Under the pieces are notes generated by a model that saw only the letters and a list, made by a program, of their open reading frames with translations, made no database searches and had not been told where the DNA came from. The position numbers and the translations under genes were made by a program. Source: a virus. Taken from it: DNA of 64,000 nucleotides. Below, one piece after another: positions 29,313 to 37,641 of the stretch. How positions within the stretch are numbered: position 1 is the first letter of the stretch; each line of letters starts with the position of its first letter. The stretch lies in UHGV virus genome UHGV-1351569; one strand, written 5' to 3'.

Positions 29313-29797
29313 TTTTAAAAACTCGCTGGTATGATTTAGATGACGGGGATGATGGCATTTCAGTTGATAGAGTTGACTGGAATGGCTGTTCCGAAGATAT
29401 GAAAAATTTGCTGATTAGGGAGTTTAGAATGGGATATCAACCAGTTAAGCCATCTACTGCAACAGATGATAAATTCGTGTGTATTCATAATGGTCGCGCT
29501 AAATTAACGAACGCTGATTGGTTCACAGATAAGATTATGATTCTGTGGTATATTATTAGTTTTCCTGTGACATCATTTGTATTTTGCTTCTTTGGAGAAA
29601 GTCCAGTAGACAAAACGGGAGATTGGATTATTTTAACCATACTTGTTAATATTTTTACAGCAGCAATACTATCAGGAATATGGTACGTGTTCATTGAAAT
29701 GCCATGGCGGTTACGTAGGCAGCAAAAGATTTTTGATGAAAAGAAATATACTCAAAATTTAAATAACTTTATCACCGAATGCAGGAAATTAAAATGA
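29309..29797 (+). CDS. small membrane protein, paralogue family member 3
   Basis: two predicted TM helices; C-terminus ...NFITECRKLK. Confidence 0.55.
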   Translation: MILKTRWYDLDDGDDGISVDRVDWNGCSEDMKNLLIREFRMGYQPVKPSTATDDKFVCIHNGRAKLTNADWFTDKIMILWYIISFPVTSFVFCFFGESPVDKTGDWIILTILVNIFTAAILSGIWYVFIEMPWRLRRQQKIFDEKKYTQNLNNFITECRKLK

Positions 29798-30234
29798 AAA
29801 CATTATCAGCTGGTATTATCTTTATGACAGAAGATAAAGATTTATTCATGGGACGGGTTACTGGTTCTCGTAAGCCTGGAATGATGACACATCGCTGGGA
29901 TATTCCAAAAGGCCGTGTAGAAAATTCTGATTTGAGCGCACTAGATGCAGCACGAAGAGAATGCTTAGAAGAGACCGGTTTTAGCAATTATAATCCAGAC
30001 CTTCTAGAAGACCTAGGTGTATTTAAATATTCTAGTAATAAAGACTTACAGTTATTTTATTATACGATTCCAGTAGAGCATGAGATGTTTAGAAATTGCC
30101 ATTGCGAGTCTTATTTTGAAAATAAAGATGGCGTTATGATTCCAGAGATGGATGCTTTTGCTCTTATTCCTCGTACCCAGTGGCAATATGTGATGGGTCC
30201 TTCACTTTACCGAATAATGAACAACCTCTTTTAA
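29779..30234 (+). CDS. nudE: Nudix hydrolase
   Basis: Nudix box GRVENSDLSALDAARRECLEETGF; immediately upstream of e; alternative RBS-supported start at 29794. Confidence 0.75.
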   Translation: MQEIKMKTLSAGIIFMTEDKDLFMGRVTGSRKPGMMTHRWDIPKGRVENSDLSALDAARRECLEETGFSNYNPDLLEDLGVFKYSSNKDLQLFYYTIPVEHEMFRNCHCESYFENKDGVMIPEMDAFALIPRTQWQYVMGPSLYRIMNNLF

Positions 30235-30765
<531 letters not shown>

Positions 30766-32937: not shown

Positions 32938-33196
32938 AGATATTAAGGGTTATAAGCCACATACTGAAGAGAAAATCGGTAAAGTGAATGCTATCAAAGA
33001 TGCTGAAGTTCGTTTAGGACTTATCTTTGACGCTTTATATGATGAATTTTGGGAAGCACTAGATAATTGCGAAGACTGTGAACTCGCGAAGAATTATGCC
33101 GAAAGCCTTGATCAGTTAACTATTGCTAAAACGAAACTCAAAGAAGCCAGTATGTGGGCTTGCCGTGCAGTGTTCCAACCAGAGGAAAAATACTAA
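32930..33196 (+). CDS. hypothetical protein
   Basis: 88-aa ORF. Confidence 0.45.
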
Positions 33197-33474
33197 TGGC
33201 TCAATTAAGCGCAGGGTTTGGTTATGAGTATTATACTGCCCCTCGTCGTGTATCTGCTGCTCCTAAGAAAATTCAGAGTCTTGATGACTTCCAGGAAGTA
33301 GTTCGTAACGCTTTCCAGGACTATGCACGTTATCTTAAAGAAGATTCACAGGACTGTCTCGAAGAAGATGAAATTGCTTACTATACGCAGCGTCTTGAAC
33401 AGCTCAAAAATCTACATGAGGTTCGTGCAGAAGTTTCAAAGTCTATGAATAAATTGATTAGATTTAAAGAATAA
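33196..33474 (+). CDS. hypothetical protein
   Basis: 92 aa from ATG overlapping upstream stop (TAATG). Confidence 0.45.
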
Positions 33475-33476
33475 TT

Positions 33477-33506
33477 GTTTACTTTTCCTCTTGACTGTGG
33501 TATAAT
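33477..33506 (+). promoter_or_regulatory. early promoter
   Basis: GTTTAC ... TGGTATAAT, then RBS AGAGGAG. Confidence 0.6.
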
Positions 33507-33533
33507 TTTTCTATCAGTTAAGAGGAGAACAAC

Positions 33534-33995
33534 ATGACTATCAACACAGAAGTTTTTATCCGTCGAAATAAGCTCCGTCGTCACTTTGAGTTGGAGTTTC
33601 GTCAAATTAACAATGAGATTCGTGAGGCATCAAAAGCAGCAGGGGTCTCATCGTTTCATCTAAAATATTCTCAACATCTTCTTGATCGCGCAATTCAACG
33701 GGAGATTGATGAGACATACGTTTTTGAATTATTCCATAAAATAAAAGACCATGTTTTAGAAGTTAATGAATTCCTGAGTATGCCTCCGCGTCCTGACATT
33801 GACGAGGATTTTATTGATGGGGTTGAATACCGTCCTGGACGTTTAGAAATCACAGATGGAAATCTTTGGCTTGGATTTACAGTTTGTAAACCTAATGCGA
33901 AGTTCAAAGACCCGTCGCTTCAGTGCAGGATGGCAATTATCAACAGTCGTCGTTTACCAGGAAAGGCTTCTAAAGCAGTAATTAAAACTCAATGA
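33534..33995 (+). CDS. regB: RegB site-specific endoribonuclease
   Basis: 153 aa, MTINTEVFIRRNKLRRHFELEFRQINNEIREASK... recognised as T4 RegB. Confidence 0.85.
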   Translation: MTINTEVFIRRNKLRRHFELEFRQINNEIREASKAAGVSSFHLKYSQHLLDRAIQREIDETYVFELFHKIKDHVLEVNEFLSMPPRPDIDEDFIDGVEYRPGRLEITDGNLWLGFTVCKPNAKFKDPSLQCRMAIINSRRLPGKASKAVIKTQ

Positions 33996-34002
33996 GGTAA
34001 GC

Positions 34003-34548
34003 ATGAGAAAAGCACTACTCGCTGGTCTATTGGCCATTTCAATGATGGCACATAGCTCCGAGCATACTTTCAGTAATGTCCAACTCGATAACATGCGTTA
34101 CGCGTATCAATTCGGGGAACAATTTTCTAAGGATGGAAAATATAAAACACACAAAAATATCCACAAGAGCGGATTAGGTCATATAATGGCTGCTATTTTA
34201 TGGCAAGAAAGCTCTGGCGGAGTTAATTTAAAATCTAAACCAAAGCATCACGCTTACGGAATGTTCCAAAATTATTTGCCTACTATGCGAGCAAGAGTTA
34301 AGGAACTTGGTTATAATATGACCGACGCTGAAATAAAAAGAATGTTGAATAAACGATCCAATTCAGCTTCCTGGGCGTACATTGAACTTTCTTATTGGTT
34401 AAATATACATAAGGGCGATATAAGAAAAGCAATATCCTCTTATAATTCGGGATGGAATGTTAAAGCAGGTTCTAAATATGCTTCTGAAGTCCTAGAAAAG
34501 GCTAATTACCTTAAAAATAATAAACTTTTGGAAATAGTAAATGACTAA
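34003..34548 (+). CDS. secreted lytic transglycosylase-like protein (SLT domain)
   Basis: signal peptide MRKALLAGLLAISMMAHS; SLT motifs WQESSG, GMFQ, YNSG. Confidence 0.65.
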   Translation: MRKALLAGLLAISMMAHSSEHTFSNVQLDNMRYAYQFGEQFSKDGKYKTHKNIHKSGLGHIMAAILWQESSGGVNLKSKPKHHAYGMFQNYLPTMRARVKELGYNMTDAEIKRMLNKRSNSASWAYIELSYWLNIHKGDIRKAISSYNSGWNVKAGSKYASEVLEKANYLKNNKLLEIVND

Positions 34549-34888
34549 AATTTTGGTTTTATGTATAGGATTAATTTCATTTTCTGCTTCTGCGTCAGCA
34601 GATACATCATATACTGAAATTAGAGAATATGTAAACCGCACTGCGGCAGATTATTGTGGGAAAAATAAAGCATGCCAAGCTGAATTTGCACAGAAATTAA
34701 TATATGCATATAAAGACGGAGAAAGAGATAAATCAAGCAGATACAAAAACGATACATTATTAAAACGATATGCTAAAAAGTGGAATACTTTAGAATGTTC
34801 AGTTGCGGAGGAGAAAGATAAAGCCGCTTGTCATTCAATGGTTGACCGTTTGGTAGATTCTTATAATCGAGGATTGAGTACTAGATGA
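34541..34888 (+). CDS. small secreted protein (vs-like)
   Basis: 115 aa with signal peptide; position of T4 vs. Confidence 0.5.
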   Translation: MTKILVLCIGLISFSASASADTSYTEIREYVNRTAADYCGKNKACQAEFAQKLIYAYKDGERDKSSRYKNDTLLKRYAKKWNTLECSVAEEKDKAACHSMVDRLVDSYNRGLSTR

Positions 34889-35364
34889 TTGTAAAATATA
34901 TCAAGGGCGATATTGTCGCCCTATTTCTTCAAGGTAATATTATTGCGCACGGGTGTAACTGTTTTCATACAATGGGCAGTGGTGTAGCTGGTCAATTAGC
35001 AAGAGCCTATCCCAAAATTTTAGAAATAGATAAGACCACAACTGAATATGGTTCGCGTGAAAAACTCGGTGATATGTCTATTGTTTTTAAACATAAACCT
35101 AATGGTTTTGGCATATGTTATAACTTGTATACGCAATACGAACCAGGTCCTAATCTTGATTATGGTGCTTTAGTAAACTGCATGATAGAATTAAATCTAC
35201 AGGCAGAAACCCTTTTGTTTAAACCAGTAATTTACATTCCACGCATAGGTTGTGGTATTGCTGGCGGTGATTGGGATAAGGTTTCTAAATTAATCGACAT
35301 GTTTACTCCTGATATTGATTTAATAGTGGTGGATTATGAAAGTACATTACCCACATCCGTTTGA
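34885..35364 (+). CDS. macro-domain-like protein (ADP-ribose binding/processing fold)
   Basis: GDIVALFLQGNIIAHGCNCFHTMGSGVAGQLARAY and IPRIGCGIAGGDW resemble macro domain N- and C-terminal motifs. Confidence 0.55.
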   Translation: MIVKYIKGDIVALFLQGNIIAHGCNCFHTMGSGVAGQLARAYPKILEIDKTTTEYGSREKLGDMSIVFKHKPNGFGICYNLYTQYEPGPNLDYGALVNCMIELNLQAETLLFKPVIYIPRIGCGIAGGDWDKVSKLIDMFTPDIDLIVVDYESTLPTSV

Positions 35365-35548
35365 TCCTAAAAACAAAGCAGAAATTATTCGTCAATGGGA
35401 ACGCATTTGCCGTACTAAATGCCCAATTAATAGTTCACATGATGTAAATAAAGACTATATTGGAACATTCGTTGAATATACCTTTATTGATAAGAAAGGT
35501 CGTAAACAGCACGTAGAAGAATATTGCTTAAAGGTTACATGGTTATGA
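35336..35548 (+). CDS. hypothetical protein
   Basis: 70-aa ORF. Confidence 0.4.
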   Translation: MKVHYPHPFDPKNKAEIIRQWERICRTKCPINSSHDVNKDYIGTFVEYTFIDKKGRKQHVEEYCLKVTWL

Positions 35549-35751
35549 GCCAAACTAGTATTCTTAAAAATGCCCATTGTGAAAAGTGTAAATGGCCTGT
35601 TGTTTTTGCTTTATGTAATGATGAAATGGCTTGTGATTTCGATTATTGGTGCTATTGTTCGAACAAAGGATGTAGCAATCATAAAGGTGAAGGGTTTTAC
35701 TCGGGATTTTACCCTTATCCTGATTTCGTTAAAGAAGGTGAACCAAAATGA
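35524..35751 (+). CDS. small Cys-rich protein (possible zinc ribbon)
   Basis: CEKC...CDFDYWCYCSNKGC. Confidence 0.4.
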   Translation: MLKGYMVMSQTSILKNAHCEKCKWPVVFALCNDEMACDFDYWCYCSNKGCSNHKGEGFYSGFYPYPDFVKEGEPK

Positions 35752-35924
35752 ATGATGATTTAAAATATCAATTATTACGTGAACTTGATGTTTTGATTGA
35801 ACTTTCTGCACAAAAAGGATTTATAATTGGATCGGGTCAAAAAGACCCCAACGGTCATTCAATCGTATCGGTTATGAATCAGAAACGAGTCATTTTAAAA
35901 CTTTTGGGGATTGACATACTGTGA
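35748..35924 (+). CDS. small hypothetical protein
   Basis: 58 aa; ATGA overlap upstream and GTGA overlap downstream. Confidence 0.35.
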   Translation: MNDDLKYQLLRELDVLIELSAQKGFIIGSGQKDPNGHSIVSVMNQKRVILKLLGIDIL

Positions 35925-36106
35925 GCCTAAGCAAAGAACAAAAAGATAAATTGTTTGAGCTTATCCATGAACTTCTAGATGAGCATACAGAAGCAAACAC
36001 CTTTTATGATGAATACGGCCCGCTATCTCCCGAACAGCAGGAAGAATTTGCTGATCGGTTTGATAAGAAAGAAAATGAATTAATAGCTTATGTGAATACG
36101 CTTTAA
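35921..36106 (+). CDS. small acidic hypothetical protein
   Basis: 61 aa, GTG start. Confidence 0.4.
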   Translation: MSLSKEQKDKLFELIHELLDEHTEANTFYDEYGPLSPEQQEEFADRFDKKENELIAYVNTL

Positions 36107-36115
36107 GAAGGTGAT

Positions 36116-36697
36116 ATGGCGAGTTTAATTTTTACTTATGCAGCAATGAATGCTGGAAAATCTGCTTCTCTTTTGACTGCTGCGCATAATTATAAAGAAC
36201 GCGGAATGGGTGTATTAGTTCTTAAGCCTGCTATTGATACTCGCGATTCTGTCTGTGAAGTCGTTTCTCGCATCGGAATTAAACAGGAAGCGAATATTAT
36301 TACGGATGATATGGATATTTTCGAGTTCTATAAATGGGCTGAAGCACAAAAAGATATTCATTGTGTATTTGTAGATGAAGCTCAGTTTTTAAAAACTGAA
36401 CAGGTGCATCAATTAAGCCGAATTGTTGATACATATAATGTTCCTGTTATGGCTTATGGACTAAGGACTGATTTCGCTGGAAAATTATTTGAAGGTTCTA
36501 AAGAACTTTTGGCGATTGCAGATAAACTTATTGAACTAAAGGCAGTTTGTCATTGTGGTAAAAAAGCTATTATGACAGCTCGATTAATGGAAGATGGAAC
36601 ACCAGTTAAAGAAGGCAATCAAATCTGTATTGGTGATGAAATTTATGTTTCTTTGTGTAGAAAACATTGGAATGAATTAACTAAAAAGCTCGGTTAG
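36116..36697 (+). CDS. tk: thymidine kinase
   Basis: 193 aa, P-loop AMNAGKSAS, C-terminal zinc ribbon CHCGKK...C. Confidence 0.9.
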   Translation: MASLIFTYAAMNAGKSASLLTAAHNYKERGMGVLVLKPAIDTRDSVCEVVSRIGIKQEANIITDDMDIFEFYKWAEAQKDIHCVFVDEAQFLKTEQVHQLSRIVDTYNVPVMAYGLRTDFAGKLFEGSKELLAIADKLIELKAVCHCGKKAIMTARLMEDGTPVKEGNQICIGDEIYVSLCRKHWNELTKKLG

Positions 36698-36739
36698 TGC
36701 AAAAGTTATAAATAGGTTTATCTAACTAAAGGGGTATAT

Positions 36740-36952
36740 ATGCTACAATTAACTGAAAAGCAACTTCGCAATCTTACTGTTCTTCAATTAGATGAAATTC
36801 GTAGGGAAGTTGGAAATATCATTTCAGCTTTGCGTCGAGAAGTATCGCTCAACCAATCTCCGGCAGACTATACTAGATTGCGAAATTTTGAAAAATACCT
36901 TGATAAAGTTAAGGCCGTGCATCGGCATAAAGTAAATACAGGACAAAAATGA
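36740..36952 (+). CDS. hypothetical protein
   Basis: 70-aa ORF between tk and rI. Confidence 0.5.
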
Positions 36953-36964
36953 TAGGAGGCCTTT

Positions 36965-37258
36965 ATGGCCTTAAAAGCAACGGCACTTTTTGCCATGCTA
37001 GGATTGTCATTTGTTTTATCTCCATCAATTGAAGCGAATGTCGATCCTCATTTTGATAAATTTATGGAATCTGGTATTAGGCACGTTTATACACTTTTTG
37101 AAAATAAAAGCGTAGAATCGTCTGAACAATTCTATAGTTTTATGAGAACGACCTATAAAAATGACCCGTGCTCTTCAGATTTTGAATGTATAGAGCGAGG
37201 CGCGGAGATGGCACAATCATACGCTAGAATTATGAACATTAAATTGGAGACTGAATGA
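36965..37258 (+). CDS. rI: lysis inhibition regulator rI
   Basis: 97 aa with N-terminal signal/anchor MALKATALFAMLGLSFVLSP; position after tk. Confidence 0.75.
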   Translation: MALKATALFAMLGLSFVLSPSIEANVDPHFDKFMESGIRHVYTLFENKSVESSEQFYSFMRTTYKNDPCSSDFECIERGAEMAQSYARIMNIKLETE

Positions 37259-37641
37259 AATTCAGCGACTTTTCACAAAGTGGAAAACCTTCAAAGGCAG
37301 ATGAATACTTAGGTTTATTAATGGCTGCACAAGCTTATTTTCATTCTGCGCATTTTGAAACTAAAAGTTATGCTAGACACAAAGCATACGATTTTATTTT
37401 CTCTGAGTTACCAGATTTGATTGATAAATTTGGTGAGCAATATTTGGGGTATTCTGGTAGAAAATACACACCTTCAATTCCAGATGCCAGTAAACTTCCT
37501 ACCGACACAATTAAAATGATTGATCGCATACTAGACCAATCTAACAGCATTTACAAAGAAATGCCTCCAGCCATTCAAAGCACGATAGATGATATTACTG
37601 GAATGTTTTACCAGAGTAAATATCTTCTTTCCCTCGAATAA
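37255..37641 (+). CDS. hypothetical protein
   Basis: 128-aa ORF. Confidence 0.5.

Follow-up and report, generated by a model that had tools for sequence, protein, structure and literature searches.

The open reading frame (ORF) at positions 34885..35364 (+) of the analysed window, a 64,000-nucleotide stretch of the virus genome UHGV-1351569, is identified by synteny and sequence as the Tequatrovirus tk.4/adfM orthologue, and its product belongs, as a small stand-alone protein, to the TARG1/ALC1-like macrodomains. The function that we favour, with reasonable but far from full confidence, is an anti-DarTG2 one, in which window Tk.4 would protect replicating phage DNA from the toxin DarT2 by a hydrolysis like that of SCO6735. 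An anti-defence role of this kind is already published (2025) for the T4 orthologue, and the locus does not represent a new kind of system. The gene is found here as an allele strongly divergent from that of T4, and the protein has a glutamine at the position of the catalytic lysine of DarG.

The ORF runs from ATG to TGA and encodes 159 amino acids. The motifs from which a preliminary description of this DNA had proposed a macro fold are all found in its translation, with GDIVALFLQGNIIAHGCNC at residues 8–26, GSGVAGQLARAY at residues 31–42 and IGCGIAGGDW at residues 121–130. The fold itself is borne out by several searches. The Pfam Macro family (PF01661) is matched with an E-value of 2.4e-8 and 34.4 bits over model positions 2–117 of 118, above the gathering threshold of 22 bits, and PHROG 335, of which T4 Tk.4 is also a member, is matched with an E-value of 1.5e-71. 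A sequence search of the PDB recovered the macrodomains BT1257, Poa1p, SCO6735, DarG, and TARG1 (best E-value 1e-10), and with a profile of the 57-sequence family the best match was BT1257 (E 1.7e-19). AlphaFold2 gave an unusable model from the single sequence (pLDDT 35.8) and was therefore rerun with the 57-sequence alignment as input. The resulting model has a mean pLDDT of 93.6 and a pTM of 0.88 and displays the alternation of strands and helices typical of the three-layer alpha/beta/alpha macro fold. In its comparison with the PDB by Foldseek, over 50 macrodomains of solved structure were matched at a probability of 1.00, including TARG1, BT1257, Poa1p, and DarG, with query-normalised TM-scores of 0.72–0.77 for TARG1, Poa1p, and DarG and of 0.68 for BT1257. 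The structure prediction called for in the preliminary description has thus given a macro fold and no differing one. Hundreds of database entries labelled macro domain or phosphatase are 95–99% identical to window Tk.4. The ORF is real, and its assignment to the macrodomains is far above chance. The features of the locus are collected in Table 1.

Table 1. Features in and around tk.4, in positions of the window.
Feature	Coordinates	Strand	Basis
vs (valyl-tRNA synthetase modifier), upstream neighbour	34541..34888	+	100% amino acid identity to T4 Vs
tk.4/adfM orthologue, stand-alone macrodomain	34885..35364 (including stop codon)	+	Pfam, PHROG, AlphaFold2, Foldseek, synteny
GC-rich palindrome AGGGCGATATTGTCGCCCT, tk.4 codons 7–13; hairpin, then T-rich stretch	34904..34922		terminator scan, RNA fold
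Divergent allele block, 33–83% of nucleotides shared with T4 per 30-nt window (backbone 97–100%)	34923..35337	+	sliding window
ADP-ribose-binding loop 1, H22-G-C-N25-C...M-G-S-G-V-A-G36	34948..34992	+	conservation, SCO6735 alignment
Catalytic-loop segment N80-L-Y-T-Q84-Y-E-P-G88	35122..35148	+	MAFFT alignments, HMM alignment to TARG1/BT1257
Phosphate-binding loop 2, P119-R-I-G122-C-G124-I-A-G-G-D-W130	35239..35274	+	conservation, alignments
tk.3, downstream neighbour	35336..35548	+	91% amino acid identity to T4 Tk.3

The identity of the gene is founded on a T4-like gene order together with a BLASTP match to T4 Tk.4 of 57% identity over 155 amino acids (E 1e-69). The 10 kb around tk.4 match many Tequatrovirus genomes at about 96% identity, and the order regB, vs.1, vs, tk.4, tk.3, small ORFs, tk, rI.1, and rI is that of T4, with the gene placed, as its orthologue is, between vs and tk.3 and upstream of tk. 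In the preliminary description the gene had not been recognised as T4 tk.4. Its earlier location as next to tk holds only roughly, since four small ORFs separate it from tk (36116..36697) further downstream, and the adjoining genes are vs and tk.3. The vs stop and the tk.4 start overlap in the tetranucleotide ATGA, an arrangement suggestive of a joint transcript with coupled translation; by the same token, tk.4 may be co-transcribed with regB, vs.1, and vs. A sigma-70 scan for a dedicated tk.4 promoter gave 9 sites against 13.6 expected in shuffled sequence, and none is claimed. Only an early-type site upstream of regB (33478–33506) is of note. The Rfam search of 33000–37500 returned nothing at E ≤ 1.

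The stretch between tk.3 and tk (35524–36106) is hyperplastic, adjoins the swapped tk.4 allele, and holds small ORFs unlike those of T4. A Cys-rich ORF of about 68–75 amino acids (35524/35545..35751) carries CxxC...C...CxC...C motifs, a 58-residue ORF (35748..35924) has no counterpart among T4 tk.1, tk.2, and tk.3, and a 61-residue ORF (35921..36106) is 52% identical to T4 Tk.2. A tk.1 homologue is absent among these small ORFs.

The neighbours of tk.4 are nearly identical in the window and in T4. Their amino acid identity is 99% for regB, 100% for vs.1, 100% for vs, 99% for tk, 100% for rI.1, 99% for rI, and 100% for rI.-1, whereas tk.4 is at 56% in amino acids and 66.5% in nucleotides. In 30-nt windows the identity to T4 is 96–100% up to 34900, falls to 83% in 34901–34930 with all of the mismatches after 34922, reaches 33–50% in the middle of tk.4, and returns to 80–96% within tk.3. 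The right-hand junction of the swap is placed inside the overlap of tk.4 and tk.3 because this overlap (35336–35364) measures 29 nt in the window and 4 nt in T4, and because the C-terminus of window Tk.4, which overlaps tk.3, is four residues longer than that of T4 Tk.4. T2, T4, and T6 share the T4-type gene at 98.7–100%. A cut-off of at least 90% amino acid identity yields about 319 phage records for the window-type allele and about 224 for that of the T4 type. Window Tk.4 is 91% identical in amino acids to the copy of the Dhakavirus CLB_P2, in which the flanking genes are at 26–70%; the window-type allele also occurs in a Gaprivervirus, and T4 Tk.4 is 83% identical to the copy of RB69. Within the window-type allele, dN/dS is 0.04–0.13. 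Taken together, the allele looks like a gene-precise replacement between genera, and the comparison of sequences identifies window-type tk.4 as a maintained and functional gene under purifying selection.

Two other origins of the divergence were considered and rejected. Gene decay does not agree with an ORF intact in hundreds of genomes and with the above dN/dS values. Fast local evolution does not agree with the high identity to the Dhakavirus copy as compared to its flanking genes. A separate record, GenBank PV654520.1, named “Pseudomonas phage vB_PSGBLB0006” (host P. aeruginosa, 142 kb), contains a tk.4 whose DNA is 98.5% identical to this E. coli Tequatrovirus allele; a wrong label or a contamination is the probable cause.

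The palindrome AGGGCGATATTGTCGCCCT lies exactly at the left edge of the divergent block, and the remaining tk.4 diverges after it. The palindrome was flagged by the terminator scan on both strands, and the RNA fold of 34880–34945 has an energy of −14.3 kcal/mol (z −2.2). It is kept, third codon positions included, in T4, in RB69 (Mosigvirus), and in IME08 (Dhakavirus), where the loop shows a single T-to-C change. The element could be an attenuator of the vs transcript, a hairpin that stabilises this RNA, or the site of a recombination junction.

The functional evidence comes from T4. T2 and T4 are still resistant to DarTG2 without adfA and adfN (PMC11825919), and for this reason another anti-DarTG2 factor was to be expected. 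According to a preprint of November 2025, tk.4 was the sole significant hit, depleted when a T4 transposon library was grown on a DarTG2 host, a clean T4 tk.4 knockout became DarTG2-sensitive, and the gene was renamed adfM, for anti-DarT factor Macrodomain (10.1101/2025.11.20.689424). In the same work, T4 without tk.4 forms plaques as wild type does on cells with the empty vector, sensitisation being seen on DarTG2 cells only, and the removal of ADP-ribose from DNA by T4 Tk.4 is deduced without biochemistry, hydrolysis being worded as what “seems likely” (10.1101/2025.11.20.689424). Biochemical data have been reported for a different protein, PhiKZ gp104 AdfM, which removes DarT2-made ADP-ribose from a TNTC oligonucleotide in vitro and shows reduced activity as the N23A variant (PMC13309987). 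The idea of the preliminary description that a phage macrodomain may act as an anti-defence factor is therefore correct in kind for the T4 orthologue, by transposon screen and knockout, and extends to the window allele by inference. For this allele, 56% identical to that of T4, the same DarTG2 role exerted by hydrolysis appears rather probable; the job is inferred rather than established, since the genetics concerns only the T4 allele and 44% of the residues differ.

The active site gives an indication of the chemistry. In a family alignment of 57 sequences, which includes the window allele and leaves out T4 Tk.4, 15 columns are invariant, and T4 Tk.4 agrees with the family at each of them. 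The invariant residues include H22, G23, N25, C26, G33, and A35 of loop 1, N80, Y82, and Q84 of the catalytic-loop segment, and P119, G122, G124, and W130 of loop 2. Q84 (codon 35134..35136) is aligned with K80 of DarG, K84 of TARG1, and Q85 of SCO6735. The lysine motifs at this position, as aligned with MAFFT, are PTKK in DarG, ITKK in TARG1, and PTKD in PhiKZ AdfM, whereas both window Tk.4 (YTQY) and T4 Tk.4 have Gln. Residues H22, N25, Q84, G122, and G124 of the window protein correspond to H24, N27, Q85, G126, and G128 of SCO6735, in an alignment obtained partly via BT1257. MAFFT aligned the SCO6735 sequence AHVCND with loop 1; the PDB search with residues 60–159, in which the SCO6735 alignment around Q84 was sought, returned the P-loop alone, and that alignment was obtained by way of BT1257. 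Compared with IGAGIGKGNW of T4, the window P-loop IGCGIAGGDW stands nearer to SCO6735 and to the consensus of the family.

SCO6735 is the relative in which these residues have a documented role. It cleaves thymidine-linked ADP-ribose on DNA efficiently and rescues DarT toxicity; its Q85A and Q85E variants are inactive, N27S is almost inactive, and a defect has been described for G128E, while the proposed mechanism is water-mediated, with the Gln positioning the distal ribose (PMC9411070). Although window Tk.4 is devoid of the DarG lysine, a hydrolysis of thymidine-ADP-ribose would be compatible with this constellation, because SCO6735 has the same Gln and cleaves that bond. The T-even Tk.4 is thus probably SCO6735-like, and not DarG-like, in its chemistry. 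A Gln-type active site is absent from the accessible passages of the preprint (10.1101/2025.11.20.689424) and would represent a point beyond the published work. Counting against the hydrolysis reading, the DNA-positioning lysines K34 and K89 of SCO6735 are replaced by S32 and G88 in the window protein.

DarT2, the toxin of DarTG2 systems, ADP-ribosylates single-stranded DNA at N3 of thymidine. In the mechanism that we propose, window Tk.4 would hydrolyse the thymidine-ADP-ribose bond, so that ADP-ribose would be freed and a replicable template given back. A catalytic lysine is absent; Q84, with Asn25 holding it in place, would instead orient the distal ribose for a water-mediated cleavage. Hydrolysis could be only a part of what the protein does, because SCO6735 can block DarT by binding alone, and toxin binding or an activity on uracil-ADP-ribose is possible in window Tk.4 by analogy. 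Elsewhere in the window, a 151-residue ORF (29779–30234) with the Nudix box GRVENSDLSALDAARRECLEETG immediately precedes the lysozyme gene e (30271..30765) and corresponds to T4 e.1/NudE; the T2 record names the equivalent gene NudE nudix hydrolase. T4 NudE hydrolyses ADP-ribose, and by analogy this NudE-like protein could dispose of the ADP-ribose released by Tk.4.

A rival reading is that the protein acts chiefly as an antitoxin mimic, binding DarT2 or a different ADP-ribosyltransferase toxin and so neutralising it, with the two deeply divergent alleles matched to different toxin variants. The catalytically dead Q85A variant of SCO6735 indeed still inhibits DarT, and is a stronger inhibitor than the dead forms of DarG and TARG1 (PMC9411070). 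In addition, most differences between the window and T4 alleles lie outside the ADP-ribose loops, and the allele has passed between genera as a precise cassette, as is common for arms-race genes. However, the catalytic-site residues are invariant in the 57 homologues, dN/dS is low throughout, as fits a conserved enzyme, and a 159-residue protein set against a 338-position model has no counterpart of the toxin-binding C-terminal part of DarG; binding as the main action is accordingly judged quite unlikely. Related to it is the broader idea that divergent tk.4 alleles among near-identical Tequatroviruses are arms-race specificity variants, swapped as a cassette to change the defences that are escaped, to which we give some small weight. 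If it were true, the window-type allele, also found in Dhakavirus and Gaprivervirus, would neutralise DarT2-like or base-directed ADP-ribosyltransferases other than those met by the T4 allele, perhaps partly by binding.

Enzymatic hydrolysis could also be directed at a different substrate. The T4 gene is annotated “phosphatase; contains A1pp phosphatase motif,” databases carry it as an A1pp/macro protein, the PDB matches include Poa1p, with an HxCNC motif in common, and a comparative-genomics survey has made the case that the targets of phage Macro domains are mostly ADP-ribose derivatives of low molecular weight (PMC9503650). These points speak for soluble derivatives (ADP-ribose-1''-phosphate, O-acetyl-ADP-ribose, or ADP-ribose-based immune signals) as the main substrates. 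Against them stand the sole T4 tk.4 phenotype reported by the preprint, which is DarTG2 sensitivity, and the fact that the closest solved relatives include SCO6735 and BT1257, the former acting on nucleic-acid-linked ADP-ribose. A main role of this sort is unlikely, although one protein could have both activities.

Nucleic-acid substrates other than thymidine in DNA deserve a similar consideration. TARG1, DarG, and SCO6735 hydrolyse uracil-linked ADP-ribose on single-stranded RNA, SCO6735 doing so efficiently, and TARG1 also removes thymine-linked ADP-ribose (PMC13036486). Tk.4 might therefore reverse the ADP-ribosylation of RNA (e.g., uracil-linked) or of other nucleic acids by another host toxin, with DarTG2 as a side activity. 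We regard this as very doubtful, given that the literature searched holds no bacterial anti-phage system making uracil-ADP-ribose and that the RNA-adenine modification by CmdT has been described as irreversible (PMC13036486), while CmdTAC, according to the abstract of the CmdTAC paper, defends robustly against T-even phages.

The preliminary description had further suggested that the enzyme could tune the phage's own modifications, that is, erase or adjust the ADP-ribosylation of host proteins by Alt, ModA, and ModB. These three enzymes make arginine-linked ADP-ribose. The TARG1/ALC1-like class acts on ester-linked ADP-ribose, and we know of no arginine-ADP-ribose hydrolase activity reported for it. 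Thymine- and uracil-linked ADP-ribose are also substrates of this class (PMC9411070, PMC13036486). The sole point in favour of such tuning is the coexistence of the Alt and Mod enzymes with Tk.4 in T-even phages, whereas the catalytic constellation of Tk.4 matches that of a thymidine-ADP-ribose hydrolase and, according to the preprint, the T4 tk.4 deletion plaques as wild type on the empty-vector host (10.1101/2025.11.20.689424). The suggestion found no support, and a role in modifying Alt, ModA, or ModB products is extremely improbable.

Phage macrodomains are very common, homologues of window Tk.4 alone being present in about 2,770 records among 50,697 of phages. To our knowledge, no phage macrodomain had a demonstrated role until 2025–26. 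For the anti-DarTG2 reading two points are sharpened here, namely, that the T-even AdfM is of a Gln type resembling SCO6735, and that it exists as at least two alleles, 56% identical, which are exchanged as exact cassettes. All of the genetic evidence comes from one allele, and the designation “anti-DarTG2” reaches the approximately 320 records with the other allele by extrapolation.

Among the known systems, the nearest is T4 Tk.4/AdfM itself. It shares with window Tk.4 the slot between vs and tk.3, the size (155 against 159 amino acids), the fold, and the invariant H, N, Q, and G residues, and it differs in its identity of 56–57% in amino acids and 66.5% in nucleotides, next to flanking genes at 99–100%, in its P-loop (IGAGIGKGNW against IGCGIAGGDW), and in the four-residue C-terminal extension present only in the window protein. 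The DarTG2 phenotype belongs to the T4 allele only, T2, T4, and T6 all being of the T4 type. SCO6735 (PDB 5E3B) and BT1257 of Bacteroides (2FG1/2AFC), which are close homologues of each other, are TARG1/ALC1-like proteins that have Gln where the catalytic Lys would stand and share the His, Asn, and Gly-x-Gly with window Tk.4, at about 27% identity to it; SCO6735 is a cellular, DNA-damage-inducible protein of Streptomyces coelicolor, whereas window Tk.4 is a phage protein. Human TARG1/OARD1 (4J5R/4J5S) is the top structural match (E 1.2e-10, TM 0.73–0.83). Its catalytic dyad K84/D125 is Q84/A126 in window Tk.4, on which ground a TARG1-type Lys/Asp mechanism was discarded. Yeast Poa1p (6LFQ–6LFU), an ADP-ribose-1''-phosphate phosphatase, has IHSCNC where the window protein has AHGCNC; its alignment covers residues 3–79 and the P-loop, keeps the His of the His23 region, and leaves the middle of the domain unaligned by sequence. 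The database label “phosphatase” of tk.4 derives from the similarity to Poa1p, and we know of no phosphatase phenotype for any phage member.

The DarG macrodomain (PDB 5M31/5M3E/5M3I) is matched by Foldseek with a probability of 1.00 and a TM-score of 0.72–0.73 and has the loop-1 Asn in common with window Tk.4; the Thermus and Mycobacterium labels of 5M3I and 5M31 differ between PDB tools, but both structures carry PTKK, and the conclusion is the same under either label. DarG and PhiKZ gp104 AdfM have the same proposed task as window Tk.4, the removal of DarT2-made ADP-ribose from thymidine, but they keep the catalytic Lys where the window protein has Gln. On the DarG model NF048014, with a cut-off of 250 bits, window Tk.4 scores 28.1 bits, T4 Tk.4 30.3, and PhiKZ AdfM 137.8; the window protein matches only positions 2–142 of 338, and its PADLOC DarG score is 28 bits. 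The C-terminal DarT-binding domain of DarG is absent from its 159 amino acids, and no darT adjoins tk.4, the neighbours being vs and tk.3. Membership in DarG was rejected on the NCBIfam and PADLOC scores far below cut-off and on the absence of the catalytic Lys and of the C-terminal domain. With PhiKZ AdfM, window Tk.4 is barely alignable by BLASTP (E 0.001). The name AdfM has been given to PhiKZ gp104 and to T4 Tk.4 by two unrelated groups. The two proteins share the fold and PHROG 335 at about 21% identity, the former being Lys-type and DarG-like and the latter Gln-type. Judged from their aligned active sites, the common name hides a mechanistic difference between them.
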